A stretch of DNA of 43,656 bases, from positions 179,055 to 222,710 of the IMG/VR virus record IMGVR_UViG_3300010352_001565; one strand, written 5' to 3'. The translations under genes were made by a program, and so were the position numbers. Below, piece after piece: positions 5,530-42,643 of this stretch. Numbering within the stretch: position 1 is the stretch's first letter; every line of letters starts with the position of its first letter. This DNA is from a virus. The notes below the pieces were generated by a model, which made no database searches, had not been told where the DNA came from, and worked only from the letters and a program-made list of their open reading frames with translations.

Positions 5530-5535
5530 AAGCTC

Positions 5536-5553
5536 CCCAGGAACAATCCTGGG
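5536..5553. terminator. hairpin between convergent genes (CCCAGGA-acaa-TCCTGGG), likely a terminator for the minus-strand operon
   Basis: A 7-bp GC-rich stem sits immediately after the stop of the minus-strand gene and is followed on that strand by AGCTTTTAA. Confidence 0.4.
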
Positions 5554-5769
5554 TCACTTCACCATCATCTTGGCGATCTCTTCGCACCCGCGAACTAGTG
5601 CCACAAGCGCTAAGGATGCAATCACAAGCATCAGTAGCGACACCGCAGTCGACTTCCTCCTTTTTTCCATGGCTAGCTTTGGGTTCTCAGCGCACTCAGG
5701 ACACAGCTTACCGTTGGGTAATGGAGACGTCCTGTCACAGATCTCGCACGGGCCGTGAATTTCAACCAT
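5554..5769 (-). CDS. small zinc-ribbon protein with a C-terminal transmembrane helix (71 aa; the track ORF 5554-6033 is trimmed to the internal ATG)
   Basis: The ATG at 5769 lies 1 nt after the helicase stop. CEIC...CPEC is followed by the hydrophobic stretch LLMLVIASLALVALV. The longer 159-aa version overlaps the helicase by 260 nt. Confidence 0.4.
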   Translation of the reverse strand: MVEIHGPCEICDRTSPLPNGKLCPECAENPKLAMEKRRKSTAVSLLMLVIASLALVALVRGCEEIAKMMVK

Positions 5770-5770
5770 A

Positions 5771-7189: not shown

Positions 7190-8211
7190 ATCACTTTCTT
7201 CAAAAAGACTTCGTTGCGGCTGTTGTAGTATTCAAGCGTCCAGTATTGCTGGATGGCGTAGCCAATGCGGCGCCAGAATTCGAATGAATCATCTACAGTT
7301 TCTGTCGCGATCTCAAAATCAGAGGGAGAGAATCCGTGCTGATTAAGAACTGTCTTGACAGCAATCGGCATCATGCGCTCTTTCGTCTTGAAAACATACT
7401 GAGCTCTCCTGTTGCTTCTCTTTAGTTCCTTCAAAGTCTGACAAACGCTGAACCGGTGGCGCTGGACCATCGGAGTCCCAGTAGGCTCATTAAGGTGCGG
7501 GGTAAGAATGGTCTCAACATAGCAGGCGTCGGTGGCAAGCCAGATGGGGCTAAGAGAAAGCTCCTGCATATTGAACAGCATTGGAGCAGGATCTCCAGAC
7601 GACCTTATCTTGTATCCCACGATGAAACTTCCAGCGATGATTTCGCTATTGAGCATCTGTTTCTCGGCGTCGGACGTTTTCTCTTTTCCGAGAAGTGTGT
7701 CAATGGCCTCAAGGTCAAACGTCCCGTACTTCTGGACGCACACAGAGCGGTACAGCTCAAGCCGGTGATTGGCGCGATCTCCGAACAGCATGTTGGCGTA
7801 AAACTTCCTGTCTGGAGAAGCCTCGCGGTAGCCTATCATGTTGGTCAGGATGTATAGGCGAAGAGAGCAACCGGCGTCGCTAGCAGCCTGCTCGACTCGC
7901 TGCTTTGCATCTTTTACCCGAAGTAGAGAGTCACCTTTGGTTTTGTAGACAGTTTCGTAGCAGGATTCGTACAGCATCGCCAGACTGTCGGCCTCTGGGT
8001 CTTTAACTGGGAGATCTCGAAGCCCTTTTGGAACAAAGTTGAATCTCAGTTTGTCTAAAGGAATGCGTCCTTTTCGCCGTCCAAGAGCTTTCTGGCACTC
8101 TTCAGCATGTTCGCACTTTGAGCAAAGTTCGTCTTTTCCGAACTCGAATCCGTAGCAGGGGCGTGGAGTTTGTATGGGGATGCGTTCAAGCATTGCGTTC
8201 TTTGAGAACAT
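7186..8211 (-). CDS. helicase-associated protein with an N-terminal Cys4 zinc ribbon; possible primase
   Basis: It is coupled to the helicase by an ATGA overlap at 7186-7189. The zinc ribbon is CYGFEFGKDELCSKCEHAEEC. I found no clear TOPRIM or AEP motif, so the primase call rests on context only. Confidence 0.35.
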   Translation of the reverse strand: MFSKNAMLERIPIQTPRPCYGFEFGKDELCSKCEHAEECQKALGRRKGRIPLDKLRFNFVPKGLRDLPVKDPEADSLAMLYESCYETVYKTKGDSLLRVKDAKQRVEQAASDAGCSLRLYILTNMIGYREASPDRKFYANMLFGDRANHRLELYRSVCVQKYGTFDLEAIDTLLGKEKTSDAEKQMLNSEIIAGSFIVGYKIRSSGDPAPMLFNMQELSLSPIWLATDACYVETILTPHLNEPTGTPMVQRHRFSVCQTLKELKRSNRRAQYVFKTKERMMPIAVKTVLNQHGFSPSDFEIATETVDDSFEFWRRIGYAIQQYWTLEYYNSRNEVFLKKVM

Positions 8212-11200
8212 GGAAAGAGCCGCTCGAAAGCCAAAGCAGATATACCTTGACCCTCAGGGACAGCAGTTGAGTCTTAAAGATGTCGATAAGAAATGGCGAG
8301 ACACCATCATCTATCACAACGGAACTGAAAATCGTGGCGGAAACATCGTCACCACATTCGACCCAGAAAACCCGCTAGGAACGCGGCTCCTAGAGCCTGG
8401 TCCTGATTCTCCGGTGTGCGCTAAGTGCGCGCTTTACGAGCAAGGAGCTCAGCACCCGTTCATGAAGCCGTTTGGTGCCGAGGACCCACTAGTGACGGTG
8501 GTATTTGACTCGGTGTCTGGAAAGGAAGACTCGCGCGGCGAAATCGGATCTGATGGGCCTCCAATGCTGATTCGGAAGCTGGTTCAGGAAATGGGGTTTG
8601 ACGCATCTCGAATACGATGGGCGCCGGCGACTCTTTGCTCCGCCAGGACTGGAAAGCTTCCAAACTACTCGACTAAGGGAAACCACTGCAAAATCCATCT
8701 TATTCAAGACATCGAGCAGCACCCACCGAAGATGATCATGACCGTTGGAAGCGCCGCTCTCGGACTTCTGTCGTTCAAATCGAATGCTCAAGACTGGGGT
8801 GGCCGCGTGCTGACGTATCGCGGATGGCCGGATGACTGGCTGACAGATCCTGATTACATGCTTGACCGACCTGATCCGCGCGATCCAAAGACATCTCTCA
8901 CGCGCGGACATCCCATCATGGGAAAAGCTCCAGAAGGCTTCCGAATTCCCATCGTTCCGATTCAGAGCCCGCGCATGGTTTACATGACGCAAAACCAGAA
9001 TGTCATCAAGCGCTGGAAGTCTCACGTCAAGACCGCGTTCGAGATGGCACTTCAGGGAGTTCCTCCTAAGGTTTACGACCGCGCCTATTGGAACATGAGC
9101 GTCGATCCAGACGAGATTGCTGAAAATCTCCTCTACTTGATCAACCACCCAGGAACGCTCACCAGCTACGACACTGAAACAAACGGCGTCAGACCTTGGG
9201 CAGTGGACGCTGCGATCGTGTTCATGATGTTTCGATGGACTGATGAAGATGGCAACCCGAAATCGATTGGCTTCCCGTGGAACTACCCGAACAGCCCGCT
9301 GATCAACTATCTCCCAGAGCTCGCGCCGCTCGTCCTTGAAGCTCTGTATGCCTCAGACCTCATTGGACACAACATCACGTTCGACGTCTTGTTTACCTAC
9401 GCAAACGTGCCTGGGGCCAACCTGGTTAAGCTAGCGAATGCTGCAAAATGGGATACCTGGCATATGGCATACGTCATGCGCCAGCAGCGCGGAACGTTGG
9501 GCTTGGAAATGATCGCTTACGAGTGGGTGCCTGACCTTGCGGGCTACGAAGAGGACATGACCCTCTTGATTGAGCTGCTCAGAGACCTGTTACATCCGGG
9601 AGCCGGAAAGGGAGGCCACTACGCCAACTGCCCGCGCGATAAGTGGGACACCCACCTCAAGCCCTACGTCATGGGTGACGTCGAGGTGGCTTACTGCGCA
9701 AAACCGAAGATTGAGGCCAAGCTTGGAACTGCCAGAACTTACCGAATGCCGCTGGCAGACCCAACCCGACGCGGTCGATTTCGCTTGTTCGAGCCGCCAC
9801 CCCGAAGCTGGGTTTATCCGAACGTTGTATCTCCAGCCGCGCGGATGCTCATGAATATGATGGGTCGCGGCATGCACGTGGACATCGAGGAGCTAGCGCG
9901 CCAGGAAGACATTTTTCCGAAGAAGATTAGAGAAGCTCGCGACAAACTTCGAGCGGTCGACCCGAAGATTATCGAGTGGTGCCAGCAGATGGAGGAGACC
10001 GAGCCTGGATGGGAGCTTGACCTTGAAAAGAAAGAGCACCTCAAAACAATCCTGTTTGACAGCAGACTTCTAAATCTTCCAGTCAATCGCATCACTGAGA
10101 GCGGGCAGAAGCTCTTTGGAGATACCCCAGAAGACTTGCAAGGGCTTCCGCGCGAGAAGCTGGTCGAATACGCGGCGCTGGACAAGTTCACGCTGAACAT
10201 GCTGTCAGTCGAGCATCCTCAGGTTCGGCCTCTCCAGGAATACAAGAAAATATTCAAGGCGTATACCACCTACATTCGCCCACTTCGCAACGCTTTCTCA
10301 GACAAAAAGCATGGTGGCGTTGATAAGAAACGCCGCATGGAGATACAGCACCTTATGCGAGACGGCTGCGTGCACGCCAGCTTCAAGCTGACTGGAACGC
10401 GCGGAGGACGCTTGAGCTGCTCTGATCCGAACCTTCAGCAGCTACCTCGCGACGGTTTAATTAAACGCATTTACACCAGCCGCTTTGGAAAAAGAGGGTG
10501 CGTCTACCAAGGCGACCTTTCTCAGATCGAATTGCGCCTTCTGGCTGCAGCTTGCGGAGACTCCTCAATGGTGGATGCTTATCAGCGCGGCATCGACCTG
10601 CACGCCCTGACTCACAGCAAGATTTACAGCAAGGCATACGAGGAATGCACCAACGAGTTCATGGAATGGCTGCAGGCGCACGGCAGAGACTCTGAAGCAA
10701 AGAAAGTCAAGCTCGAGCGCAAAGCCGCAAAGGTCGTTAATTTCTTGACAGGCTACGGTGGAGGAGCTTTCGGTCTACAAACCGCTCTGGCAAACGACCA
10801 GATCTACAAGACGCTTGAAGAGTGCGAAGCTCTGCTTGAGGCGTTTTTCGATGGCTATCCAGCAATGCGCCGCTACCTGTCTTACTACAAGGACTTCATC
10901 CAGCAAAATGGCGTGGCCGTGTCGATTCTCGGACGCGTTCGCATCTTTGAAGAGGTGTTTGGCGATGATCCTAAGGCGAAAAACAAAGCGCTGCGCGCTG
11001 GTTGCAACCACCTGATTCAGTCCACTGCTTCTGACTTGATGCTTATCTGCTTGACGGCTATCGAGAACATCTTGACGAACGAGGGCCTTGAATCTCAGAT
11101 GGTCTGCACGGTGCACGACTCTCTTGTGGTTGACGCTGTGCGCGAAGAGCTGCCTGTTGTCCACGACATTGTCTACGGGGTGCTCAACAACATCCCTGAC

Positions 11201-11365
11201 GTGCTCAAGCTCACATTTGGTGACAACTATGACACGTCATGGTTGTCATTTGTTCCTCTGGCTGGAGATTGCGAAGTTGGTCTCAACTACCTCGATGCGA
11301 AGAAAGTTCCTCAGCACGGCGAGATTGACTGGGACAAGCTTTTGGCACCAGCAGCCGCTCACTAA
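8174..11365 (+). CDS. family A DNA polymerase with an N-terminal family-4 UDG-like domain and a 3'-5' exonuclease domain
   Basis: The exonuclease motif is SYDTETNG. The polymerase motifs are RLSCSDPNLQQLPR, KVVNFLTGYGGGAFGL (motif B) and VHDSLVVD (motif C). The N-terminal ~250 aa resemble UDG family 4 (GEIGSDGPPMLIRKLVQEMGF...WAPATLC, HPP), but the GEAPG-type motif A is degenerate (DSVSGKED). Confidence 0.85.
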   Translation: MGMRSSIAFFENMERAARKPKQIYLDPQGQQLSLKDVDKKWRDTIIYHNGTENRGGNIVTTFDPENPLGTRLLEPGPDSPVCAKCALYEQGAQHPFMKPFGAEDPLVTVVFDSVSGKEDSRGEIGSDGPPMLIRKLVQEMGFDASRIRWAPATLCSARTGKLPNYSTKGNHCKIHLIQDIEQHPPKMIMTVGSAALGLLSFKSNAQDWGGRVLTYRGWPDDWLTDPDYMLDRPDPRDPKTSLTRGHPIMGKAPEGFRIPIVPIQSPRMVYMTQNQNVIKRWKSHVKTAFEMALQGVPPKVYDRAYWNMSVDPDEIAENLLYLINHPGTLTSYDTETNGVRPWAVDAAIVFMMFRWTDEDGNPKSIGFPWNYPNSPLINYLPELAPLVLEALYASDLIGHNITFDVLFTYANVPGANLVKLANAAKWDTWHMAYVMRQQRGTLGLEMIAYEWVPDLAGYEEDMTLLIELLRDLLHPGAGKGGHYANCPRDKWDTHLKPYVMGDVEVAYCAKPKIEAKLGTARTYRMPLADPTRRGRFRLFEPPPRSWVYPNVVSPAARMLMNMMGRGMHVDIEELARQEDIFPKKIREARDKLRAVDPKIIEWCQQMEETEPGWELDLEKKEHLKTILFDSRLLNLPVNRITESGQKLFGDTPEDLQGLPREKLVEYAALDKFTLNMLSVEHPQVRPLQEYKKIFKAYTTYIRPLRNAFSDKKHGGVDKKRRMEIQHLMRDGCVHASFKLTGTRGGRLSCSDPNLQQLPRDGLIKRIYTSRFGKRGCVYQGDLSQIELRLLAAACGDSSMVDAYQRGIDLHALTHSKIYSKAYEECTNEFMEWLQAHGRDSEAKKVKLERKAAKVVNFLTGYGGGAFGLQTALANDQIYKTLEECEALLEAFFDGYPAMRRYLSYYKDFIQQNGVAVSILGRVRIFEEVFGDDPKAKNKALRAGCNHLIQSTASDLMLICLTAIENILTNEGLESQMVCTVHDSLVVDAVREELPVVHDIVYGVLNNIPDVLKLTFGDNYDTSWLSFVPLAGDCEVGLNYLDAKKVPQHGEIDWDKLLAPAAAH

Positions 11366-11646: not shown

Positions 11647-12708
11647 ATGCCTAACAACGGACCCATACCTTCATACGCCAGTGAGAGACTCATTGGACTC
11701 GAGCTCGAGTACGACGCAAAAACCACCAAGCTCAGCTTGCCAACGACGACACCTTCTGGCTGGTCGCGGCAGTCTGACGGCAGCCTGCAGAATGGCGTTG
11801 AGATGGTGCTCAATCCTCCTCTGACGCTGACAGATGCAACTCCAGTGGTCAAAGAGTTCGCTGACGCTTTCAACCGAGCCCGGACAAACACCTTCAGCAG
11901 CGGCGGCTTCCACGTTCATGTTCAGGTTGCGGATTACACCGAGCATGACGCCGGAAATCTCGCTCGCCTCTACCACCATTTTCAGACGCAGATTAACCGG
12001 TTGCTTGGAAAATCTCGCCACAACAACCACTACTGCCCTCCGTTTACGCACTCCGTGACAGATGCCGATCTTTCGTCGAGATTTAATCTCGGCTCGCTTG
12101 CCAGCACGAGAGCCAGCGCCAAGTCTGCCCGCAAATACCAAGTGGTGAACTTCGCAATGATGCGGTGCACTCGCCACAGCGACCGCACGGTGGAATTTCG
12201 CCAAGGAAGCACCACAAAGCGGTTTGAGTGCATCATTGGCTGGGCGGCATTCTGCGTTGCCATGGTTGAAATCGCCAAGAACGACGCCATGACCAGCGCT
12301 TACATCGGTCAGCAAGCGTCGTGGGAAAACTTCGTGCAGATGCTTCGCGACCACGAATCCATGGTTGGTGCCAGCCACATTGCTGACTGGGTGGTTTGGA
12401 GACGCGAATATCTCGAAGAGACACCGAGCGACGAGCTCATCTCAAAAGCAGTTGCCGCTATGGGACGCCGTCCTCGCGGAATCTTTCACATCTCGCGCGC
12501 TCTCGACATCAACTTGCCGCTGAGCGAGCGGACTCTAAACGCCGCCGTTTCTCGCGGTCTGATTGCTAAGATCGGATCGAAATACCAAGCAAAGTTTGTC
12601 TCATTCGCGGGGTCAGATCTTGAGCAGCTTCAACAAGCCGCGGAAGCCAGGGAGGCAGCTATGCCCGCTGACCGCTCAGGCGAGGTTCTACCTGGAGAGG
12701 AACAATAA
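11647..12708 (+). CDS. amidoligase paralog C
   Basis: Carries IGLELEYD, GGFHVHVQV and VEFRQGSTT, the same three-motif architecture as ORFs 359-1354 and 1739-3157. Confidence 0.6.
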   Translation: MPNNGPIPSYASERLIGLELEYDAKTTKLSLPTTTPSGWSRQSDGSLQNGVEMVLNPPLTLTDATPVVKEFADAFNRARTNTFSSGGFHVHVQVADYTEHDAGNLARLYHHFQTQINRLLGKSRHNNHYCPPFTHSVTDADLSSRFNLGSLASTRASAKSARKYQVVNFAMMRCTRHSDRTVEFRQGSTTKRFECIIGWAAFCVAMVEIAKNDAMTSAYIGQQASWENFVQMLRDHESMVGASHIADWVVWRREYLEETPSDELISKAVAAMGRRPRGIFHISRALDINLPLSERTLNAAVSRGLIAKIGSKYQAKFVSFAGSDLEQLQQAAEAREAAMPADRSGEVLPGEEQ

Positions 12709-21389: not shown

Positions 21390-22952
21390 TCACTTCTTTC
21401 TCCACACAAACGCTTCAGAATACCACGGTGGGAAAAACTGAGGATACCGCTCCCAGATCATCGTGAAGTCCGAATCAAGAATGTAGGTGACACCTTTGTC
21501 GGTGTCACTGCGCACAATTCGACCAGAGGCCTGGATGACCGTCATGACCGTCTGCATGACATACCAATCCGGGTCTTTTTCTTTTTTAGCGAGCACCTGA
21601 GCATCCCCAAGACTTGGCCACGGGATCTTCGCGATAATCTGCCAGGTGGCAAGATCGCTTGCGAAGTCAAATCCTTCTGTCATCGACGGGCTAATGATCA
21701 CTGTAGGAAATGGCGAATTTGCATGGTCGGCAAATGCGCGGTCGCGCTCATCAGCTGTGCGAGGAAACAGAAGGCGGTGAGGATATATTGGCGCAAAGTT
21801 TGCATAGATTAGCTCCCCAAGCGCGTAGCTGTTGCAGTGGATGATCCCTTTCTCGTCTTTGTGAAGATCCAGAATCTTTCGTGTGAGCCGCATGAATTCT
21901 GGGGTCGTCGCTTCGATGTTGCGCTTGCTCATAGATCCAGCAAACAGCATGACCACAGGGCGGTTCTCAACTGGGAACGTGGATCTTAGCGAGCACCACC
22001 CAACGTCAGCTGCTTTAAGACCGAGGTTGCGGCAAAACACCGACTTACTTCCAGGATACGCCGACATGTAGACTCGAATGTCGGCCATGTCTCGCACAAT
22101 ATCCACAAACGGAGCGGCGTCAAGAGGTCTTGCGATCGAGTCACGGTATCCTTCCTTGTCTTTCTCCTGCCAGTAGACCCAGTTTTTTGAGTCCTCCTTG
22201 ATGAGCTTCAAAGCGTGGAGCACCTTGTTGACGTGTTGCTCAAGTGCGTAGGCTTCGCGAATGGCTTGGTCGTCGTTACCCTCAGCCAGCGCGATAAGCA
22301 CCTCAGAGCGTTCCTTAATGGCAGAGACATAAGTTCCTTCGACCCACTCGACAAATTGCTCTAGAGTGTTCAGAACCGGAACCTCTTGGATGTCTGGGGC
22401 CCACTTCGGAAGGTCGCGTTCAGACACAGTCATGTCCATGTGGCGAATGAGCTGGCGCTCAAGGCTATGAGCCTCGTCGCACACCAAGATGCGACGCTTC
22501 GAGAACTTTCCGACGTGGATGCGCTCGGTTAGAAAATAGGGATAGTTCGTAACACCGGCTCTCGAGCTGGCGAACATGTTGCGCTGTCGACGGTAAGTGC
22601 AGTTGTCTCCGAGCTTGCACTTCTTGGAAGACTGACCGACGGAGCACTTTTTAAAACCGCTGGAGCACTCGTACTCGTTCGAAGACTTCAGCGACACGAT
22701 CTCCGGAAAGTCATCCGCGTACTGGTCTTGGAGCATCTTCTGGGTAGTAAGAATGTAGCCTCCAGGCTGAGCGCTCGACCGATTAGCTGCTCCCCAGTTG
22801 CACAGGGTCACGCCAACGGCTGACTTTCCAGACCCAGTTGGAGCAGCGAGAACAATGTCTTCACAGCCCATTCCAATGGCCTTATTGATGAAGTTGACAG
22901 CCGTGGTTTGCTTTTCGCGCGGTGTCAGTTGAGATGGAAAATATTCAAGCAC
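21390..22952 (-). CDS. DinG/Rad3(XPD)-like superfamily-2 helicase with an FeS-cluster insert
   Basis: Walker A is APTGSGKS and the DEAH box is VCDEAHSL. Four Cys residues lie between motifs I and II (CSSGFKKCSVGQSSKKCKLGDNC). Confidence 0.8.
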   Translation of the reverse strand: MLEYFPSQLTPREKQTTAVNFINKAIGMGCEDIVLAAPTGSGKSAVGVTLCNWGAANRSSAQPGGYILTTQKMLQDQYADDFPEIVSLKSSNEYECSSGFKKCSVGQSSKKCKLGDNCTYRRQRNMFASSRAGVTNYPYFLTERIHVGKFSKRRILVCDEAHSLERQLIRHMDMTVSERDLPKWAPDIQEVPVLNTLEQFVEWVEGTYVSAIKERSEVLIALAEGNDDQAIREAYALEQHVNKVLHALKLIKEDSKNWVYWQEKDKEGYRDSIARPLDAAPFVDIVRDMADIRVYMSAYPGSKSVFCRNLGLKAADVGWCSLRSTFPVENRPVVMLFAGSMSKRNIEATTPEFMRLTRKILDLHKDEKGIIHCNSYALGELIYANFAPIYPHRLLFPRTADERDRAFADHANSPFPTVIISPSMTEGFDFASDLATWQIIAKIPWPSLGDAQVLAKKEKDPDWYVMQTVMTVIQASGRIVRSDTDKGVTYILDSDFTMIWERYPQFFPPWYSEAFVWRKK

Positions 22953-26092: not shown

Positions 26093-26136
26093 TTTTTGCA
26101 AAAAAGTGTTTACAAATTTCCGAAACGTGATATAGT
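26093..26136 (+). promoter_or_regulatory. conserved phage promoter copy 4
   Basis: ttttttgcaaaaaagTGTTTACAaatttccgaaacgTGaTATAGT. The ATG at 26143 is about 8 nt after the -10. Confidence 0.7.
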
Positions 26137-26142
26137 CATCCC

Positions 26143-26358
26143 ATGATCGTGAACAACACAACTGAAAACGAAGTTAAAATGAGCCAATTTCGCTGCCCTC
26201 ATTGCGACGCCATTCTGCGCGTCCAAGAGCGCGGATCAGTGGTTCACATCTACTGCGCCAACGGTCCCTGCCCGCAGGTTTTGAACGACGGCGCGTCTGC
26301 CTCGTCCGAGGCTGAAGCTTTCGCGGCTCTTGAAAACAACTACGACGAACAAGCCTAA
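26143..26358 (+). CDS. small zinc-ribbon protein (CPHC...CANGPC)
   Basis: Its leaderless N-terminus MIVNNTTENEVK matches the mini-ORF MIANN... after promoter copy 5. An alternative start is the internal Met (MSQFRCPHC). Confidence 0.5.
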   Translation: MIVNNTTENEVKMSQFRCPHCDAILRVQERGSVVHIYCANGPCPQVLNDGASASSEAEAFAALENNYDEQA

Positions 26359-26359
26359 C

Positions 26360-26827
26360 ATGAAAACCATCGTCCTCGACATGCAGCCTGACCACAAGAA
26401 CACTTACGCCATGGCAGGAGTCGCAGAGAGCTCTTCTGGTCCTCACGGCCAAGTTCAGATCAACGTCGCCAAGCGGTTGGATTGCTGGGTTACCGCGCCA
26501 GAGCGAAAGCTGGTCCTTGCTCTTTCAAAGTCCACCACCAAGTATCAGGCTGATGACGCGGGCCACTACGGCGACCGCTGCAATCTGCAGCAACGAAAGC
26601 TGAAGCGAGTCATCTTCGAGTTTGAGGACTCTGAGGCTGAAACCCGCGCCGACGGCATGTATGTCGAGTGCGACAGCCTTAAAGTCTGTGGTGTCCAAGT
26701 CCACGGTCCGTTTGGAACTTTAGACGACGCGCGCGCTCACATCAAGACGCTGGTCTGCACTCAAGCCGACGTTGTGCTGATCAAAGACCACGAAACAATT
26801 GACCGTGTAAACATGTATCCATTTTGA
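26360..26827 (+). CDS. hypothetical protein (155 aa; the track start at 26330 is trimmed)
   Basis: MKTIVLDMQ... Confidence 0.5.
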   Translation: MKTIVLDMQPDHKNTYAMAGVAESSSGPHGQVQINVAKRLDCWVTAPERKLVLALSKSTTKYQADDAGHYGDRCNLQQRKLKRVIFEFEDSEAETRADGMYVECDSLKVCGVQVHGPFGTLDDARAHIKTLVCTQADVVLIKDHETIDRVNMYPF

Positions 26828-27011: not shown

Positions 27012-27086
27012 GCTCCCGTAGCATAGTGGTTATGCGCCAGACTCTAAATCTGTTTTACGCCGGTTCAATCCCGGCCGGGAGCACCA
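27012..27086 (+). tRNA. tRNA with anticodon CUA (amber suppressor; identity unknown)
   Basis: Manual cloverleaf: 7-bp acceptor stem (GCTCCCG/CGGGAGC), D-arm gcat-agtggtt-atgc, anticodon stem ccaga/tctgt with loop C-T-CTA-A-A (U33 and A37 are canonical), a 5-nt variable loop, T-arm gccgg-TTCAATC-ccggc, discriminator A and an encoded CCA. Confidence 0.7.
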
Positions 27087-27103: not shown

Positions 27104-27466
27104 ATGAAAAAACAGAAACCAGGAAGTAAATCTCGTAAGCTCATTGAGGCAGCGGAAAAGTCGCAGACGCCGCAGACGCTGTTGCCCGGCGACTACGTCC
27201 GCCTGATCGGCGGCGAAGAGATCCCTGATGAGTTCGGAGTGATCGAGTGGGATGAGGGAATATCACCGCTTGGTGAGCATTTTTACGTGGTGCAGGTTGA
27301 TCCAAAATGCATCCACGACGAGGACGATGATGGCGCGCGTGAGGTCACGCAAGATCAGATCCAGTTCATCCGCCGTGGAAAGGGAACATTCACCGGTAAG
27401 CAATCTGCCGGCGTCAAGAGGGTGAGAGACTACCTTCAGGCGCACGGACAGGACCAGAAAAACTAG
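27104..27466 (+). CDS. hypothetical protein (120 aa) ending in TAG, in frame with the downstream PTH2 gene
   Basis: Its ATG is 18 nt after the tRNA. Its TAG stop is at 27464-27466. Confidence 0.5.
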   Translation: MKKQKPGSKSRKLIEAAEKSQTPQTLLPGDYVRLIGGEEIPDEFGVIEWDEGISPLGEHFYVVQVDPKCIHDEDDDGAREVTQDQIQFIRRGKGTFTGKQSAGVKRVRDYLQAHGQDQKN

Positions 27467-27520
27467 TGTACAACTCAACAAAGAAAGCATATTCTTATGA
27501 ACATGAATACCCACACGTAG

Positions 27521-27907
27521 GTGTCTGAACCGGCCGCTGATCAAACCATGCGGCTGTACGCCATCGCTCATGCCAACCTCGGCATGGGAACTGGCAAACT
27601 CGCTTCTCAATGCGGTCACGCATTCACTGAAGCGCTTCTTCACTCACAAGAGTTTCAACCTGCTCGTTTTAAGGAATACCGCTCAGACGGGATGGGCACT
27701 AAAGTGGCCCTCTCTGCGAATTCCACCGACGAGATCCACAGCATCAAGTCCAAGTGCGACGAAGCTGGCATTCCGGCGACGATCATCACGGATTCTGGGT
27801 GTGCTAATTTCTTCAACGGAGCCCCGACGATAACCGCCATCGGCGTGGGACCTGCGAAGAGACACGAAGTCAAAAAGATCCTCGGGCGGTTAAAACTGAT
27901 CAACTGA
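27521..27907 (+). CDS. peptidyl-tRNA hydrolase, PTH2 family
   Basis: LGMGTGKLASQCGHA and GTKVAL...GIPATIITDSGCANFFNGAPTITAIGVGP...ILGRLKL align motif by motif with archaeal and eukaryotic PTH2 (LGMGKGKVAAQCSHAA ... [21 protein letters not shown]...VTGHLKL). The track start is a GTG. The first ATG is at about 27548 and has no obvious SD. Confidence 0.8.
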   Translation: MSEPAADQTMRLYAIAHANLGMGTGKLASQCGHAFTEALLHSQEFQPARFKEYRSDGMGTKVALSANSTDEIHSIKSKCDEAGIPATIITDSGCANFFNGAPTITAIGVGPAKRHEVKKILGRLKLIN

Positions 27908-29577: not shown

Positions 29578-31668
<2,091 letters not shown>

Positions 31669-34454: not shown

Positions 34455-35287
34455 TGCCTGACAACCGCGTCCTTTACGTCGGAAAAGGACACGGTTCGCG
34501 GATGAGTTTTCACCAAAAAGTTATTGACCATCCTCAAAATAAGCTGAATCAGCGTCCGATGTACCAAGGGCTGCGCGCTGAGCTCACACCTGGAAAGTCG
34601 TTTATCGCGCGAAAGGTGTTTGAGTCCGCCGACGAGATCGTGTGCCTTCTCGAAGAGCAACGGCGAATCCACGAATACGGATTCGATAATCTGTTAAACG
34701 TGGCTTCTCACGCCTTCACTGGACGCCGAATGAAACCAGCTGTTGGAAGGCTTATCGCTTCTAAGCTCAAAGCCTATGTTCAACGCTGTCGCGATCAGTA
34801 CGGATCTGGGCACCCTCCAGAAGTTGCTGCCAAAATCGCGGCGTCAAACCGCGGAAAGCAGCTAAGCTCAGAGCACATTCAGAAAATTCGTGATCTCCAT
34901 GCGTCTGGAAAGATGGACCACGTTCATGTTGTGTTTACTGACGCCGGACGCCGAGCGCAGTCTGAACGCGGCTTCTCTGAAGAGCACCGCAAGGCGCTGT
35001 CCATATCCTGCCGCGGTAGGAAGTACCCAAACAGAAGGCGTCCTGGAATCATTCAAAAACAGGATAAAATGAGGTACAAAGGAGTGTCGCTGTTTAAAGG
35101 AAAGTGGGTGGCTAGGATCACAATCGAAGGCAAGGTAAAGATGGTTGGAGTGAGGTCAGATGACCGCCAAGCAGCCGTGCTGTACGACAACGCGGCTGAG
35201 AAGCTGTTCGGAAAGAGACCGAACGCCACAGAGCGCTCAGAGCAGGTCCAATCTGCGTGGGCAACGGCGTCAAGTTTGAAATGGTAG
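34424..35287 (+). CDS. GIY-YIG homing endonuclease with NUMOD3 and AP2 DNA-binding domains
   Basis: The N-terminus YYVYELV...NRVLYVGKG is GIY-YIG-like. KIAASNRGKQLSSEHIQKI is NUMOD3-like. YKGVSLFKGKWVARITIEGKVKMVGVRSDDRQAAVLYDNAA is an AP2 domain. The start is a GTG that overlaps the upstream gene by 31 nt. Confidence 0.7.
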   Translation: MEYYVYELVLMPDNRVLYVGKGHGSRMSFHQKVIDHPQNKLNQRPMYQGLRAELTPGKSFIARKVFESADEIVCLLEEQRRIHEYGFDNLLNVASHAFTGRRMKPAVGRLIASKLKAYVQRCRDQYGSGHPPEVAAKIAASNRGKQLSSEHIQKIRDLHASGKMDHVHVVFTDAGRRAQSERGFSEEHRKALSISCRGRKYPNRRRPGIIQKQDKMRYKGVSLFKGKWVARITIEGKVKMVGVRSDDRQAAVLYDNAAEKLFGKRPNATERSEQVQSAWATASSLKW

Positions 35288-35302
35288 TTAGGTTAGCGCG
35301 GC

Positions 35303-35364: not shown

Positions 35365-35952
35365 ATGAGAATCGACGACTACATCTTGCAGTGCGGTGTT
35401 CGATCGCTGTGCGAATCTGAGTCTTCAGATACGCCTCCGACGCCGCAAGAAGTGGCTGAACTCTTGGCCTACCTTCGGAAGTTCAAGCTGAACCCTGTCA
35501 TTGTCGGTGGAGTCGCCGTGTTCCACCACTTGAAGTCGGCTAAGTCAAGCGATTTCCGTCCTACTGTGGACATCGACGTCCATGTCACCAGGCCTCTTCC
35601 TCCTCCGCCTTCCGGGTGGAGTGACAACAACCATGAAGGAATTGACAGCTGGAAAAGCCCGTCTGGCGGCAACGTCGATTTTATCATCGGCGGTCAGGTC
35701 CTGTCTGGGACGTATCGCACTCTAAAGAGTGTCAAGGTAGCTCCAGATTCACCCCAGGAGTATCCTGTGGCTGCGCTTGATGACTTGCTAAGGATGAAGC
35801 TTGGGACCTTCAGAGAGAAGGACCAGAGAGATCTTATCTCGCTTGCTCACGCCTATGAGTTTCCTGAGCTCAGCGGACTGACAAGGAATCAGAAAGAAGA
35901 CTACGACTTCTTCAAAGGTTACGCAGCGAGCATCAAGGCGCGGAAGGAGTAG
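35365..35952 (+). CDS. nucleotidyltransferase-fold protein (AbiEii / DUF1814 / MNT-like)
   Basis: VIVGGVAVFHHLKSAKSSDFRPTVDIDV matches the Pol-beta superfamily hG[GS]...D.D signature, with AbiEii-like spacing. It is the first gene after an early promoter. Confidence 0.4.
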   Translation: MRIDDYILQCGVRSLCESESSDTPPTPQEVAELLAYLRKFKLNPVIVGGVAVFHHLKSAKSSDFRPTVDIDVHVTRPLPPPPSGWSDNNHEGIDSWKSPSGGNVDFIIGGQVLSGTYRTLKSVKVAPDSPQEYPVAALDDLLRMKLGTFREKDQRDLISLAHAYEFPELSGLTRNQKEDYDFFKGYAASIKARKE

Positions 35953-36205
35953 TAGGAGGTTCGGCTTTGGCTTTCACCGGAGGTTGCTCGGCTTTCACCG
36001 CGGTAACCTCATTCACCAGCTCTTGGTAGTCTGCGATAATGGCTTGGGCTTCCTGAAGCATCGCCGCAGTCATGATCATCACATTGGCTCTAGCATTAAA
36101 TTGTGCGGCGCGGCGGCCAAGAGTTAGTTTATCCACATTCTTTAGAACATGTCGATTAAATTTTCGCTGTGCTACACGTCGTGCAGAGCGCACCTGATCA
36201 AGCAA
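35933..36205 (-). CDS. possible small minus-strand protein in the gap upstream of the GT2 gene
   Basis: The plus strand has a 195-bp ORF-free gap here. The minus ORF has a coiled-coil-like sequence. Its low-complexity end overlaps the stop of the NTase gene. Confidence 0.25.
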   Translation of the reverse strand: MLDQVRSARRVAQRKFNRHVLKNVDKLTLGRRAAQFNARANVMIMTAAMLQEAQAIIADYQELVNEVTAVKAEQPPVKAKAEPPTTPSAP

Positions 36206-38005: not shown

Positions 38006-39262
38006 ATGAGCGACACCAAAAAACGCACCCCTCACAATTCTCAGTGGTCAATCGTAACTCTTAAAGAGCCAGTCCTGTGGTCCAGGACGGACAGCGAAGT
38101 GTGGATGCTGAATCCAACAGTTCGATACGTCATGAACTCAGATCAGCTCGAGCACCTCAACCACCTTGTTGACACTTGCTCAGACCTGCGAAATTCCGCG
38201 TTCCACAAGCCTCTTAACGGCCTTGCGAATCTCGCTCAGAAAAAGATTCTTGTCGAGCGCTATCGCGGACGCGGAGTCGGAGACCTGCTATTCATGACAG
38301 GTCCTCTGAATTACATCCGGCACATTTCAGGACACAGCGCGAAAATAGAGTTTTATGCTCTCGCTGAGAGGTCGCAAGTTCTCCAGCTGCATCCCGCTCT
38401 CGCTCACAAGAGCACGCTTGCTGGACCGCTGATCTACGACACCATCAACCAGTATGACTACCAGTGGTTCTCGGACTGCGTAACTGAATACGACGAAGAG
38501 AAGGATCAGCTCAACGTGTACGACGCGCTGTTCAAGCAAATCGGCATCGATCCGCAGAGCGTCGGAGCAGAGTTCAAGCGACCAAGCATTCACCTTGACG
38601 AACAGGACTTCGCGAATCTTGACACTTTCTACTACTTTGTATATGGAGATCGGCACATCGACTTGCGCAAGACAGGCTACTACGTGGTGGCTCCTCTGAG
38701 CAATGGGACGCTGAGATCGCTGCCGTACGCCTCCTGGCTAGAAATCATCTCTGAGCTGTCGAAGAAGCGCCCTGTAGTTGTGATCGGCCAGATGTCTGAA
38801 AGAGTTCCTCCGATGGACATGACTGGTGGAGAATTCTACTCCCAGGTTAACCAGCTTGCTCCGAACGTTATCAATGCCATGGGAAACACCCAGCTTCGCG
38901 TCGTGTCAGCCATTATCGCGAGAGCAACTGGCGTGGTGTGCCTGGACTCTGGCCCACTCTATATTAGCCAAGCTTTGCGCACGCCTGCCATCTCAATCTG
39001 GGGACCGCATCATCCTGGCGTTCGCATCGGATACGACAAGGACTACATGGAGCTTGCTATCTGGAATTCGAGTGCATGCAGCTACGCACCGTGCTTCGCG
39101 TACCACGGGTTTCCGACTCAAAAATGCCCACAAGGAGATTCTCAGCGCATTTGCGAAGTTCTAAAGGTCTCGCCCGTCGAAAGCGTGATAAATAAGCTTG
39201 AGAAAATCGAATCTGGAAATCCGTCCGTCACATCTTTCAAGGCCGCTAAACCCACCAAGTAA
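38006..39262 (+). CDS. GT9-family (ADP-heptose:LPS heptosyltransferase-like, GT-B fold) glycosyltransferase
   Basis: GVGDLLFMTGPL is the GT9 N-terminal motif. NAMGNTQLRVVSAIIARATGVVCLDSGPLYISQALRTPAISIWGPHHP matches the RfaF/WaaC C-terminal donor-binding block. Confidence 0.6.
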   Translation: MSDTKKRTPHNSQWSIVTLKEPVLWSRTDSEVWMLNPTVRYVMNSDQLEHLNHLVDTCSDLRNSAFHKPLNGLANLAQKKILVERYRGRGVGDLLFMTGPLNYIRHISGHSAKIEFYALAERSQVLQLHPALAHKSTLAGPLIYDTINQYDYQWFSDCVTEYDEEKDQLNVYDALFKQIGIDPQSVGAEFKRPSIHLDEQDFANLDTFYYFVYGDRHIDLRKTGYYVVAPLSNGTLRSLPYASWLEIISELSKKRPVVVIGQMSERVPPMDMTGGEFYSQVNQLAPNVINAMGNTQLRVVSAIIARATGVVCLDSGPLYISQALRTPAISIWGPHHPGVRIGYDKDYMELAIWNSSACSYAPCFAYHGFPTQKCPQGDSQRICEVLKVSPVESVINKLEKIESGNPSVTSFKAAKPTK

Positions 39263-39263
39263 T

Positions 39264-39722
39264 ATGCCTGAGCGCGAACTACCACAGCTTCCTCCCATTG
39301 ACATGGGAGATGACTTTAAATTGGATCTGTCATACTATTTGACCCAAAGCTACGACGACATAGGGCAGGCTTCAAGCGAGCTCCCTGCGGTCATCGAGTG
39401 GGTCAACATGAAGCTCCAGGAGATGGTTGAATCTCGGCTGATCGCGAAACAGCGCATAAAGGAGCTTGAAGCTGAAGCCTACTTCGATCTTAAAGGAGGA
39501 AGGTTTGCTGAGAATTACTCAGACAAGATGACAGAGACCTCCTTGGCGATGGCTGTAGCGCTTGACGAAAAGGTCAAATCAGCTCACCGAAAGCATGCTG
39601 TTCTGGCTGGGTGGGTTGAAAGACTGTCAAATTTACAAGGTTCTCTCGTGGCGAAGCTTGACCTTACTCGGTCATCCGAAGCCACTCGCCGCCAACTGAT
39701 AAGCAAACACGATTCTGAATAG
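39264..39722 (+). CDS. hypothetical protein (152 aa) ending in TAG, in frame with the SSB gene
   Basis: The ATG at 39264 follows the GT9 stop. The track ORF 39198-39722 overlaps the GT9 gene. Confidence 0.45.
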   Translation: MPERELPQLPPIDMGDDFKLDLSYYLTQSYDDIGQASSELPAVIEWVNMKLQEMVESRLIAKQRIKELEAEAYFDLKGGRFAENYSDKMTETSLAMAVALDEKVKSAHRKHAVLAGWVERLSNLQGSLVAKLDLTRSSEATRRQLISKHDSE

Positions 39723-39731
39723 TACAAATTT

Positions 39732-41243
39732 ATGAGTAATCAAGAAAAAAGTCCAGCATATCTGTCTCTCCTCGAGGAAGAGACAAGTTACATGCAAGCT
39801 AACACCTCTAACAAGGTGAAGCGCATCAAGATCCCTCTCGGACACGCGTGGCTCATGCGGTTCCTTCCGGTTGAACTGGGCCCGCGCAAATCGTTTTTTG
39901 CTCGCGTCGCAAATCACTGGGTTAATCGCCGTCCCATTCCTTGCCGACGCCACACTCATCCCGACTTTGGCGGAGACCCTCACGCTCCCTGCGCCATGTG
40001 CGATGCTTCCGAAGAGCTTAATGGCCACGGATCTCAGCGCATCTCGTCGATTGGATACGGCGCGCGGTCCATCAGCCAGTGGGTTTTGTTCGCACTGGTC
40101 TTCGAAAAAGATGACGGCGAGCGCAGCGACGTTATTAAAGCTCCTGACATGTGGGACGCTCATGAGTTTCAGATCACGAAAAACTCGTTTGAGGATCTCC
40201 TGAGCATCTTCAGAAAGGGAACGCGCCGCTGCCCGCTGAGCATCCTTGACCTCGTTCAAGGTCAGGACATTTGGGTTACGCAGAAGAAAACTGGCATACG
40301 CTTCGCTCCTGAAATGCCGAGCGCGATAACCAACAACCAAGACAAGATGCAGTCGATCGTCGACAAAATCTGGTCCGGAATTAAGTTCCAAGAGCCAAAG
40401 TTCCTTAGCTCTCGCGAACTTGAAGACGCCGCTGACAAGCTGCGAGACTCAGCTGAAGACGCTGGTCGTGGCCGTGGAGACGACCGTGATCGTGGTCGCC
40501 GAGGTGAAGACGAAGTTGAAGACTACGGGCGCGGACGCCGAGACGACAGAGGTCGCGGGCGCGACGATGACCGCGGAAGTCGCGGGCGTGACGACGATCG
40601 AAGCAGGGGCGGATACGACTCTGAAGACGATGCTCCTCGCGGGCGTCGCGGCGATGACGCTCCTCGCAGCAGGCGCGGAGAAGATGACGATGCTCCTCGC
40701 GGGCGCCGTGGAGATGATGAAGATGCTCCTCGCGGACGACGCGAAGAAGAGCCAAGAGGCCGGCACGACGACGAAGATGACGCTCCTCGCGGGAGGCGCG
40801 AGCGAGACGCCGATTCCGGACGAGATGACCGAGGGCGCGAAGATGACGACCGTGGGTCAAGAGGACGCAGTGACGATCGAGGACGCGGCGAAGACGACAA
40901 CGAAGAACGCTCTGCTCCGTCTGCTTCTCGCCGAAGCATGACTCCTCCGTCGGTGTCTCAGACTCCGCGCCAGGCACCTCCGTCTGCTTCAAAAACGCTT
41001 CCTCCTCCACCTGCGCGCGGCGGGACTAACGGAGCGCAAGAGCAGTCGATTGATGATGACGAAGCCATTCCAGAGGAACGCAGAGATCCCGCTCCTCCAG
41101 AGTCTATGCCAGAGCCCGAGCCTGAAGCTCAAGCTCCTGCAGACGCTCCTCCGCCCGTGGCTGCAGCTGGCGCTACGCCGTCAGCTCCCCGCTTGTCGCA
41201 GCGCATCCGCTCTGGAATAAACAGCCTTGACACCAGGAAATAA
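39732..41243 (+). CDS. T4 gp32-like zinc-binding ssDNA-binding protein with a long RG/D-rich disordered C-terminal tail
   Basis: RFLP at residues 43-46. Zinc ligands C71, H74/H76, C87 and C90 (CRRHTHPDFGGDPHAPCAMC); C87 and C90 are exactly as in gp32. The tail (residues 245-392) contains six DDAPRGRRG(D/E)D repeats. Confidence 0.65.
   Translation: MSNQEKSPAYLSLLEEETSYMQANTSNKVKRIKIPLGHAWLMRFLPVELGPRKSFFARVANHWVNRRPIPCRRHTHPDFGGDPHAPCAMCDASEELNGHGSQRISSIGYGARSISQWVLFALVFEKDDGERSDVIKAPDMWDAHEFQITKNSFEDLLSIFRKGTRRCPLSILDLVQGQDIWVTQKKTGIRFAPEMPSAITNNQDKMQSIVDKIWSGIKFQEPKFLSSRELEDAADKLRDSAEDAGRGRGDDRDRGRRGEDEVEDYGRGRRDDRGRGRDDDRGSRGRDDDRSRGGYDSEDDAPRGRRGDDAPRSRRGEDDDAPRGRRGDDEDAPRGRREEEPRGRHDDEDDAPRGRRERDADSGRDDRGREDDDRGSRGRSDDRGRGEDDNEERSAPSASRRSMTPPSVSQTPRQAPPSASKTLPPPPARGGTNGAQEQSIDDDEAIPEERRDPAPPESMPEPEPEAQAPADAPPPVAAAGATPSAPRLSQRIRSGINSLDTRK
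40464..40908 (+). repeat. imperfect tandem ~33-bp repeats in coding sequence (gacgatgctcctcgcgggcgccgtggagatgat) encoding the SSB tail
   Basis: All six frames are open here, which explains the spurious overlapping ORFs 40405-41010(-), 40523-40939(-) and 40420-40941(+). Confidence 0.55.
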
Positions 41244-41245
41244 AT

Positions 41246-42643
41246 ATGGCCAAAGCTGCGCCTGAAAAGCCAACGAAGCCAACCAAGAAACTCAAGGCTG
41301 GCTTCTCTAACAGCGACCTTAAAGATCGAATCGTAGCCAGCGTCAAGAGGATTGCTCCTCGCAATAAAGACGCTGGATCTATTGAGGTTTGCCGCACTAA
41401 CAAGGAAATCTTGTCAAGGGTTCGCTACGTCCTGACCACTGGCATAAAGCCATTCGACGATGCTGTCGGCGGTTTTCCATTTGGACGCGTAGTCGAGCTC
41501 TACGGGTTGGAGTCTTGCGGTAAGACTGCAGTCTGCATGCGCTCTGCAGTCAGAGCTCAGAAGCGTGAGATCTACGAGCGCATCAAAGTCGAGGACACCG
41601 AAAAGATCGAGTATGTCTTGCGCAAGATCCCGAATGACGCTGACGTGACAGTGCTCTACATTGACAACGAGCAGTCCCTTGAAGATGACGAGAAGATTGT
41701 CATTGAGGACGTTGAAATCGATGCCGTGCTTGCTCGCTGCGACACCGTGGAGCTTCTGTTCAAGACGATTGACAAGACTCTCGACGAGATCTCAGCGTTC
41801 GAGAAACAGACTGGACGCCAGCAGTTCGTGGTAGTCATCGTAGACACCATCGCAGGAACATCTTCGAAAGAAGAAATGACGAAGGACTGGGGAAAAGACG
41901 ACTACTCTCGCCAGCCAAAGCAGCTCCGCGAAGCGTTCCGCAGAATGACGCGCAAGATCAACCGCCAGAACGTCTGCATGATCTGCACCAACCAGGTGTC
42001 GGACTCTTACAAGGCCGCCCAGGCTGGAAAGAAGGGTAACAAGTCGACGCTTCCACGAGACCAGGACTTCTCAACGTTCGGTGGAAGGGCACTGAAGTTC
42101 TACGCGACTGTCCGCATCTTCATGTTCAAGATTCCTGACGTCAAGTATACGCTTGTCAAAGGAGCCCAGTTTGCCGCTGGTTTCTTGGTGGGTTTCTTCA
42201 CATCAAAAAACAGGCAGGTAAAACCGCTGCGCGAAGGTCGCATGGCGCTGCTATTCGATCGCGGGCTTGATAACACATTCAGCATCCTTGAGAGCTTGAT
42301 CTACTACGGATTCGCGGTGTATGACAAGGAAAATGGAGGTTACGCGTTCAGGTTTAACGCTTGGAAGATTCCAATGACCACCTTCGGTGGGTCTAACGCG
42401 ATTGACCTTGAAGAGGGAGATGCTGCTGAGGAGGAAAGCCGATCAGAGCGCAAGAAGAATCCGCGCATCGAATCTCGAGCTGAATGGCCCGCGTTTTACG
42501 AGGCCCACAAAGCAGACTTCGACGCCATGTGGGCTGCGGCAAAGAATTACATCTTCGCCACTGAGGGCATTGGCGGTTTCGTTGCTTCTCGCGAAGATGC
42601 AGAAGATGACACCGACGCTGACAGCACTGTAGTTGAAGATTGA
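41246..42643 (+). CDS. RecA/UvsX-like recombinase
   Basis: LTTGIKPFDDAVGGFPFGRVVELYGLESCGKT is the RecA P-loop signature. VVVIVDTIAGT is Walker-B-like. The C-terminal tail is acidic. Confidence 0.7.
   Translation: MAKAAPEKPTKPTKKLKAGFSNSDLKDRIVASVKRIAPRNKDAGSIEVCRTNKEILSRVRYVLTTGIKPFDDAVGGFPFGRVVELYGLESCGKTAVCMRSAVRAQKREIYERIKVEDTEKIEYVLRKIPNDADVTVLYIDNEQSLEDDEKIVIEDVEIDAVLARCDTVELLFKTIDKTLDEISAFEKQTGRQQFVVVIVDTIAGTSSKEEMTKDWGKDDYSRQPKQLREAFRRMTRKINRQNVCMICTNQVSDSYKAAQAGKKGNKSTLPRDQDFSTFGGRALKFYATVRIFMFKIPDVKYTLVKGAQFAAGFLVGFFTSKNRQVKPLREGRMALLFDRGLDNTFSILESLIYYGFAVYDKENGGYAFRFNAWKIPMTTFGGSNAIDLEEGDAAEEESRSERKKNPRIESRAEWPAFYEAHKADFDAMWAAAKNYIFATEGIGGFVASREDAEDDTDADSTVVED

Follow-up and report, generated by a model that had tools for sequence, protein, structure and literature searches.

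What does a tRNA that reads a stop codon do in a phage whose genes are written in the standard genetic code? The question is raised by a 43,656-nucleotide (nt) stretch of viral DNA (IMG/VR record IMGVR_UViG_3300010352_001565, positions 179,055–222,710; hereafter the window), in which a tRNA with anticodon CUA lies 432 nt upstream of an in-frame TAG at the head of a gene for a peptidyl-tRNA hydrolase of the PTH2 family. Both parts are present, they are linked across lineages, the stretch that carries the stop is constrained to the PTH2 frame, the stop has a distinct context, and its type is matched to the anticodon of the accompanying tRNA. From these comparisons we consider it likely that PTH2 synthesis is gated by the CUA tRNA, which would decode the early UAG in the leader in competition with release factor 1. 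The features concerned are:

27012–27086, + strand: tRNA, anticodon CUA (reads UAG), class-I elongator with encoded CCA and A73 (ARAGORN, Rfam, family covariation)
27497–27517, + strand: PTH2 leader ATG AAC ATG AAT ACC CAC ACG (MNMNTHT), starting at ATG 27497 or ATG 27503
27518–27520, + strand: in-frame amber UAG in the context ACG-TAG-GTG, proposed decoding site of the CUA tRNA
27521–27907, + strand: PTH2 peptidyl-tRNA hydrolase (Pfam PF01981), stop TGA at 27905–27907

ARAGORN called a single tRNA in the whole window, exactly at 27012–27086 (+) with anticodon CTA; these are the coordinates and the triplet of an earlier note on this DNA, which had folded the cloverleaf by hand and proposed this check. 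The tRNA is an RF00005 elongator of class I, matching the full Rfam model over 27012–27083 with 64.2 bits (gathering score 29; E = 8e-12). Both programs agree on the register of a normal 7-nt anticodon loop, CUCUAAA, with 5'-CUA-3' at positions 34–36, and a reading of the individual residues (U8, A14, G18G19, U33, C34-U35-A36, A37, T-loop UUCAAUC, A73 and CCA) bore out the hand-folded structure with its U33, A37, T-loop TTCAATC, CCA and CUA triplet. C27-U43 is the sole non-standard pair. The variable loop measures 5 nt (UUUAC), which supports the note's argument that so short a variable arm excludes a Leu, Ser or bacterial Tyr scaffold.

Two special identities were rejected for this tRNA. The label 'tRNA-Pyl' attached by ARAGORN names the anticodon only. 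tRNA-Pyl has a 6-bp anticodon stem, a 3-nt variable loop, a small D-loop without G18G19 and one base between the acceptor and D stems, and it goes with pylS/pylBCD; in the window tRNA the anticodon stem is 5 bp and the variable loop 5 nt long, G18G19 and U8-A9 are present, and no synthetase-like gene was found among the ~40 window open reading frames (ORFs) scanned. Bacterial initiator tRNA is marked by a mismatch at 1:72 and by a run of three G-C pairs at the base of the anticodon stem. An amber initiator is excluded here by a paired G1-C72, also seen in 44 of the 48 relatives described below, and by an anticodon stem (CCAGA/UCUGU) without the three G-C pairs. The anticodon arm, CAGACUCUAAAUCUG, presumably matches that of E. 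coli supF; we take this as a lead only, the stems of other family members being unrelated.

The PTH2 enzyme of the window looks intact in its predicted protein. PF01981 matched with 84.1 bits (cut-off 23; 1.1e-23) over profile positions 2–115 of 115, and the NCBIfam model arch_pth2 scored 81 bits, just under its equivalog threshold of 82. The protein aligns over its full length to the solved archaeal and human Pth2 structures 2zv3, 1rlk, 1xty and 1q7s, and the alignment to archaeal 2zv3 starts at residue 1 of the latter (MKMVVVIRNDLGMGKGK versus MRLYAIAHANLGMGTGK). The GK..(A/S)Q..HA and D-x-G motifs and the N-terminal β1 strand are present, and the columns invariant in the clade alignment are G, K, S, Q, G, H, A, D, S and G. 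The gene starts ~410 nt downstream of the tRNA, and its junction reads ATG AAC ATG AAT ACC CAC ACG TAG GTG TCT GAA CCG GCC GCT GAT CAA ACC, in frame with the catalytic domain, which begins at about 27545–27548 (TMRLYAIAHANLGMGTGKLASQCGHA...), some 8–9 codons after the TAG. Homologous leaders with synonymous differences occur in two relatives, L003 (ATG AAT ACC GAC ACG TAG GTT TCC) and L012 (ATG AAT ATG ACA TCA GCA GAC ACG TAG GTT TCC). We defined the module as a PTH2-clade gene with an in-frame stop at most 25 codons upstream of β1, the context ACR-stop-RTN and a tRNA of matching anticodon in the locus; the window has ACG TAG GTG at 27515–27523 together with its CUA tRNA.

The leader stop across the PTH2 clade

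About 145 related PTH2 loci were collected, with clade-alignment searches providing 80 metagenome loci, 40 IMG/VR loci and 7 genome-assembly loci in addition to regions of isolated phages. The sole IMG/VR relative found with the single window PTH2 protein as query, L001, lies on a 279-kb contig and encodes a 40% identical PTH2 with a CUA tRNA upstream. Its gene starts AGGAAACAT ATG AAA CAA TAG GAT AAC ACA TAC CGC CTT TAC, with a good ribosome-binding site and TAG as codon 4, and the next possible start would remove the first β strand. Each of the nine homologues from the protein database, when viewed on its contig, has an in-frame TAG, or two of them, shortly before the domain (within it in L012), and a CUA tRNA is close by in most of the nine. 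As a separate observation, L001 holds five pieces resembling tRNA 3' halves (GGTTCRAnTCC...CCA) at 5380–5960, between the CUA tRNA and PTH2; they are called by neither ARAGORN nor Rfam and may be degraded or interrupted tRNA genes.

ARAGORN run on the first 136 loci made 91 CUA calls, the next anticodon reaching 18. For co-occurrence, 99 non-redundant PTH2 sequences had sufficient DNA on their 5' side, and the tRNA was sought within a few kb. An in-frame TAG lay within the domain or no more than 25 codons before it in 87 of the 99 loci (~88%), and 68 of these 87 have a CUA tRNA nearby, usually 30–60 nt upstream, versus 2 of the 12 TAG-less loci (Fisher p = 5.5e-5; the linkage statistics are uncorrected for phylogeny, which counts against the decoding proposal). 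Clustering at 70% identity gave 34 PTH2 clusters, 30 with the TAG and 19 of these 30 with the CUA tRNA. The stop that bounds the ORF on its 5' side is TAG for 59 of 63 PTH2 genes versus 85 of 422 neighbouring genes (20%). Since TAG is also the true terminator of 18% of the 422 neighbours, the genomes of these loci are not recoded.

The strongest single test concerned the reading frame. The 90 nt upstream of the domain were searched for ACR-TAG-RT with no frame presupposed, and all 65 occurrences, spread over 16 distances from 9 to 87 nt, were in frame with the domain. Counted over frames 0/1/2, TAG occurred 100/11/23 times, TAA 10/49/34 times and TGA 24/101/85 times, so that in the PTH2 frame upstream of the domain TAG is enriched and TAA and TGA are depleted. 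Thus, the stretch from stop to domain is constrained to the PTH2 frame, as expected of a translated leader and not of a nucleotide motif or an independent mini-ORF. In many loci (L001, L006, L007 and L010 among them) no start codon lies between the stop and β1.

The gating stop also differs from ordinary terminators in its surroundings. Among 104 distinct gating contexts, the codon before the TAG is ACG in 55 and ACA in 16 (68% together), the codon after it is GTT in 56, GTA in 13, ATT or ATC in 13 and GTG in 4, and the +4 base is a purine in 92%. Of the true TAG terminators found in these loci, 59% are followed by a pyrimidine at +4, with no codon favoured at −1, and the TAG-terminated genes of the window have a +4 pyrimidine in 7 of 8 cases. 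In the largest clade, a spacer of ~60 nt between the tRNA and ATG-ACG-TAG contains a TTGACx-16-TAxxxT promoter that ends 6–7 nt before the ATG; such a −35/−10 pair precedes 22 of 30 'ATG NNN TAG' leaders versus 44 of 2634 control ATGs (1.7%). A promoter ending this close to the ATG points to a leaderless mRNA with UAG as codon 3.

The type of stop changes together with the anticodon, and the final locus table contains no leader stop accompanied by a non-matching suppressor. The informative cases are:

L103: leader TAA twice (FT*VSD...DFT*IPDP); tRNA anticodon UUA, immediately upstream
L118: leader TGA (NDNY*VPT); tRNA anticodon UCA
Atu_ph07, isolated Agrobacterium jumbo phage (L137, MF403008, 198.6 kb): leader TGA (M I G E H F * I N Y E E...); tRNA-Sup-TCA, its only suppressor (PMC6102473)
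Phosso, isolated Sinorhizobium jumbo phage and relative of Atu_ph07 (L136, PV764938, 176.6 kb): leader TAG (M K Y * V E E K...); annotated tRNA(cta)

In both isolated phages the GenBank PTH2 coding sequences (XYS97424 in Phosso, AUZ95035 in Atu_ph07) begin at an internal ATG that cuts off β1, and the homologous PTH2 frame runs upstream through the TAG or the TGA, respectively, to an ATG. Phosso has 34 open codons from the TAG to the domain. The target of the Atu_ph07 tRNA-Sup-TCA had been assumed to be ordinary UGA terminators (PMC6102473). Atu_ph07 also encodes a second, ungated PTH2 at 466381–466674. No suppressor was found near PTH2 genes with an ordinary start, as in phiCbK, phiM12, Xoo-sp13, Myrna, Baka, XacN1 (ORF295), archaeal Pth2 and L060.

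The tRNA itself belongs to a family. Across 48 distinct related CUA tRNAs, compensatory double changes were seen at 19 of 20 cloverleaf pairs, and U33, C34, U35, A36 and A37 were invariant; covariation and an invariant U33-CUA-A37 together indicate that the tRNA fold and the CUA anticodon are both under selection and are no chance match. The nearest GenBank phage tRNAs are other CUA tRNAs, from Phosso (82% identical to one family member), cluster-C mycobacteriophages and Aeromonas phages, and no sense isoacceptor; their records carry the labels tRNA-Pyl, OTHER or TERM. In view of these records and of the XacN1 precedents discussed below, a phage CUA tRNA is not by itself novel. The earlier note had drawn on A73 to narrow the amino acid carried. 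That discriminator base is indeed present in the window tRNA, but among the 48 relatives it is A, G or occasionally U and so no family trait; the inference was over-stated, and such variation would leave nothing firm on the amino acid. An attempt to read the inserted residue from TAGs lying inside the PTH2 domain, as seen in five loci, failed too, the positions being variable-loop columns (G/D/E; E/Q/S/D). Four divergent IMG/VR loci (L105, L111, L113 and L119) have in common a second in-frame TAG at alignment column 48, a variable-loop position within the PTH2 domain, followed once more by an Ile, Val or Leu codon.

After CUA, the commonest tRNAs in the loci are tRNA-Thr(CGU) and tRNA-His(GUG), usually convergent and directly 3' of PTH2 (L016, L017, L022, L034, L038, L040–L043, L045 and others). 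tRNA-Thr(CGU) reads ACG, the conserved codon directly 5' of the gating stop.

Proposed decoding of the early stop and competing explanations

In the proposed mechanism, a host synthetase would charge the CUA tRNA; which amino acid it carries probably matters little at a site in a non-conserved leader. The charged tRNA would compete with release factor 1 at the early UAG, so that ribosomes in which it wins would go on to full-length PTH2 and the others would release a short peptide. The supply of charged suppressor would then determine PTH2 output, the tRNA serving as private key to a stop-codon lock, and ordinary TAG terminators, with their other context, would be less affected. The earlier note had described a free-standing suppressor; it was right that this is a genuine phage CUA tRNA, but the description was incomplete, as a conserved target, the TAG at 27518–27520, lies next door. 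We infer read-through, its efficiency and its purpose from the pattern described above. Our leading guess for the purpose is a dosage or timing control that would tie peptidyl-tRNA recycling to suppressor activity.

A further idea, which we hold only tentatively and judge clearly less probable, is that the module may be a self-contained, portable 'orthogonal' switch re-keyed to UAG, UAA and UGA, and perhaps a feedback device instead of a simple gate. With the stop at codon 3–8 and drop-off of short peptidyl-tRNAs, PTH2 could release, and so recycle, its own suppressor or the tRNA-Thr that reads ACG from the peptidyl state. Such recycling would make PTH2 synthesis autocatalytic, or responsive to termination and tRNA pools, for example under tRNA-targeting immunity.

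Several observations weigh against decoding of the leader stop by the CUA tRNA. In the window, GTG 27521 abuts the TAG and ATG 27548 lies exactly at the domain start, and both could serve as starts without read-through. With these starts available, the case for the window rests on leader homology with L003 and L012 and on the family pattern, and the claim is weaker for this window than for the family. Between 19 and 22 TAG-bearing clade members have no CUA tRNA in the few kb examined; the missing tRNAs could sit elsewhere on those 50–250 kb contigs, which is the situation in Phosso. Contigs with a TAG-bearing PTH2 and no tRNA nearby include those of L003 (248 kb), L074 (51 kb), L100 (172 kb) and L106 (543 kb). 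A short-spacer class (L009, L047, L049, L056, L083, L096 and L101) has the 3' end of the tRNA 9–25 nt before the TAG and no ATG, GTG or TTG either between tRNA and TAG or between TAG and β1, leaving initiation unexplained; here the dedicated tRNA might take part in an unconventional translation start at the stop codon. L059 and L092 keep the tRNA and have lost the TAG, in what look like in-frame deletions of ACG-TAG-GTT. The proposed purpose is a conjecture. XacN1, tried as a solved case, turned out negative: it carries two CUA tRNAs, for which its authors sought a target and found none (PMC5852040), and its Pth is ordinary and ungated, so not every phage CUA tRNA is part of the module. The L126 leader ATG ACC TCA TAG (~2960–3000) is shifted by 1 nt relative to the domain, whose own frame has TGA as its stop; the cause is either an indel in the assembly or a frameshift, and the tRNA next to this leader combines an irregular anticodon stem with the loop TTCTAAA.

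The most probable of the competing explanations, though an unlikely one in our estimate, is that MNMNTHT* is a regulatory upstream mini-ORF, that PTH2 re-initiates at GTG 27521 or ATG 27548, and that the CUA tRNA has another role. A GTG directly follows the TAG in the window and in L011, the window has its ATG at the domain start as well, and many leaders are only 2–7 codons long. The minigenes of the lambda bar sites cause peptidyl-tRNA drop-off that Pth must clear, and given this textbook precedent a tiny ORF before a peptidyl-tRNA hydrolase would be apt. Yet in most loci the stop is followed by GTT, GTA or ATT and β1 is reached without a start codon, and re-initiation does not need the distance from stop to domain to be a multiple of three, as it is in all 65 cases. 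The TAGs inside the domain in five loci also speak against it, and a leader-peptide model leaves unexplained why TAG is chosen over TAA and TGA and why it switches with the anticodon.

A general code switch of the code-15 type, with PTH2 as one of many TAG targets and the others outside the 43.7-kb window, is a still less probable account. The strategy is established in crAss-like, Lak and other gut phages (10.1101/2021.08.26.457843; PMC9523058), and phage relatives of the window lie on 145–280 kb contigs, so that most of the genome would be outside it. However, under code 11 a greedy map placed 40 ORFs of at least 100 amino acids (aa) over 89% of the window, ending in TAA (21), TGA (12) and TAG (7), and treating TAG as sense brought no gain (87% coverage). 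The earlier note's statement that there is no wholesale code-15 recoding holds on this evidence, as it does on the 18% of neighbour genes that end in TAG across the related loci. The structural and replication genes are intact, no early-amber signature above the TAA/TGA background was found in the other window genes scanned, and the single ACRTAGGT of the window is the one in the PTH2 leader. A switch of the stop to TAA or TGA together with the tRNA would moreover be very costly if many genes depended on it. One candidate junction, between 39198–39722 and 39732–41243, was rejected as a plain stop with an ATG 9 nt further on (GAA TAG TAC). Two TAG-terminated window genes are followed by back-up TAGs, at 35950–35955 (TAG TAG) and 35285–35296 (TAG TTA GGT TAG); a tandem TAG could not halt a CUA suppressor, and these are either coincidence or unrelated to suppression.

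It is very improbable, slightly more so than a code switch, that the tRNA is a free-standing suppressor directed at the host or at immunity, with PTH2 merely mitigating side effects and its own TAG incidental. A suppressor would act on every accessible UAG, and in jumbo phages PTH2 is often found near RNA-repair genes such as RNA ligase and kinase/phosphatase (PMC7824862). The TAG of PTH2 is nevertheless not incidental, being kept in 30 of the 34 clusters in a dedicated context and covarying with the anticodon, and a role against host or immunity is compatible with read-through of the PTH2 leader and thus no true alternative. Decay, in which a nonsense mutation made PTH2 a pseudogene and the tRNA is a mutated sense tRNA, could account for one locus with one in-frame stop and one odd anticodon but is scarcely credible for an arrangement found in more than 80 non-redundant loci with PTH2 motifs kept, the tRNA fold compensated and the frame strict.

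Genomic setting of the module

The module behaves as a portable two-gene unit, whose copy in the window has ORF120 inserted between the halves. Other features of the window are:

27104–27466, + strand: ORF120, 120 aa, no known family, between tRNA and PTH2, ending in TAG
26109–26136, + strand: promoter-like TTTACA-16-TATAGT with TG, upstream of an ORF at 26330–26827, the tRNA, ORF120 and PTH2 (consensus scan only)
5771–7189, − strand: DnaB (PHROG/Pfam)
8174–11365: PolA (PHROG/Pfam)
21390–22952, − strand: helicase (PHROG/Pfam)
29701–31668: NAD-ligase (PHROG/Pfam)
41246–42643: UvsX-like recombinase (PHROG/Pfam)

ORF120 has no Pfam, PHROG or NCBIfam match and is missing between tRNA and PTH2 in L012, the closest relative besides the near-identical L008; it is probably an insertion into the module. 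It is in frame with the PTH2 leader, and its stop context is ordinary (AAC TAG T). An ORF120–PTH2 fusion by double read-through was judged unlikely to matter, given this ordinary terminator context and the absence of the ORF from related modules. The site at 26109–26136 is weak evidence for a candidate start of a transcript common to tRNA and PTH2; the consensus scan of the window gave 2 sites against 1.6 expected.

Judged by its PHROG and Pfam annotations, the window covers the replication and structural region of a large phage that is poorly sampled; amidoligases, baseplate pieces and homing endonucleases are also annotated there. Three amidoligase-like genes (359–1354, 1739–3157 and 11647–12708) and a glutamine-amidotransferase-like gene (3241–4278) lie around PolA and DnaB in what, from these annotations, looks like a cluster for nucleotide, DNA or peptide modification. 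No near relative of the phage was found among GenBank phages. Neither the window tRNA nor window positions 20–32 kb had a match in GenBank phages or E. coli in DNA searches for near and distant relatives, an exact-pattern scan of IMG/VR with the core of the window tRNA gave no match, and an IMG/VR search with the window NAD-ligase protein gave no relative.

Elsewhere the module occurs in jumbo phages (Phosso, Atu_ph07 and many IMG/VR contigs of 90–540 kb), in plasmid- or transposon-like surroundings (a Rep3 initiator and topoisomerase in L082, a TnpB-like gene in L049) and in some soil bacteria, with a chromosomal copy in three Verrucomicrobiota metagenome-assembled genomes (L142, L143 and L144). 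Annotation of neighbour genes to class metagenomic loci as phage or cellular had a mixed outcome. In L143, a 1.83-Mb contig of a Verrucomicrobiae genome, the CUA tRNA and an amber-gated PTH2 lie among genes for a GxGYxYP hydrolase, an amidohydrolase, an M50 peptidase and two PIN-domain proteins, which suggests that a nonsense suppressor may be kept in the chromosome of an apparently standard-code bacterium.

Known systems and what the module would mean

The arrangement shares traits with several known devices. Streptomyces bldA is a tRNA-Leu(UAA) that gates TTA-containing regulators such as adpA; there, too, a few specific genes hang on one dedicated tRNA whose availability is the regulatory input, but the codon is a rare sense codon free of release-factor competition, and the targets are scattered developmental regulators instead of an adjacent gene. 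The gene for release factor 2, prfB, is autoregulated through an early in-frame UGA at codon 26. It resembles the module in being a termination or recycling-factor gene with an early in-frame stop whose bypass sets its level, and differs in that the bypass is a +1 frameshift sensing release factor 2 itself, with no dedicated tRNA gene. The bar minigenes are likewise very short stop-ended ORFs tied to Pth through drop-off, and AUG-ACG-UAG leaders look like such minigenes; in contrast to the module, no Pth gene continues their frame and no suppressor tRNA is involved.

Phages with code 15 or code 4 (crAss-like, Lak, Agate and Jade) likewise use a phage suppressor tRNA to decode in-frame stops in a standard-code host, and recoding has likewise been proposed there as a post-transcriptional switch (10.1101/2021.08.26.457843; PMC9523058). 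In those phages recoding extends to many late genes for structure and lysis, with TAG or TGA depleted as a terminator, whereas here the code is standard and TAG a common terminator. The module concerns a single gene, for a recycling enzyme, whose extreme 5' end holds one or two stops in a constant context and whose tRNA is usually adjacent; it comes with all three stop types and matching anticodons and is also found outside phages. The same kind of CUA or UCA tRNA is carried by XacN1, Atu_ph07, Phosso and cluster-C mycobacteriophages (PMC5852040; PMC6102473), with PTH2 gated in Phosso and Atu_ph07, as found here, and Pth ungated in XacN1. PTH2 in jumbo phages had already been noted (PMC7824862). 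Suppressor tRNAs of phages are therefore known, as is the regulatory use of stop-codon recoding, and the PTH2 target next to the tRNA is new. We found no literature linking PTH2 with suppressor tRNAs in a search that left most subscription journals outside and is thus no proof.

Suppressor tRNAs in standard-code phages have hitherto been an annotation curiosity without a known target, and the target identified here is a translation-recycling enzyme. If decoding of the leader stop is confirmed, the truncated PTH2 gene models would be corrected, for example those of Phosso and Atu_ph07, and many 'tRNA-Pyl', 'Sup' and 'OTHER' annotations would gain a testable function. Atu_ph07 on Agrobacterium tumefaciens C58 and Phosso on Sinorhizobium meliloti offer two cultured systems with the module. 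The tRNAs and the read-through-prone ACG-UAG-GUN context would provide natural parts for genetic-code engineering, and it would follow that standard-code bacteria can retain a chromosomal nonsense suppressor. The module would then be a natural, minimal stop-codon lock with its tRNA key, re-keyed to all three stop codons.

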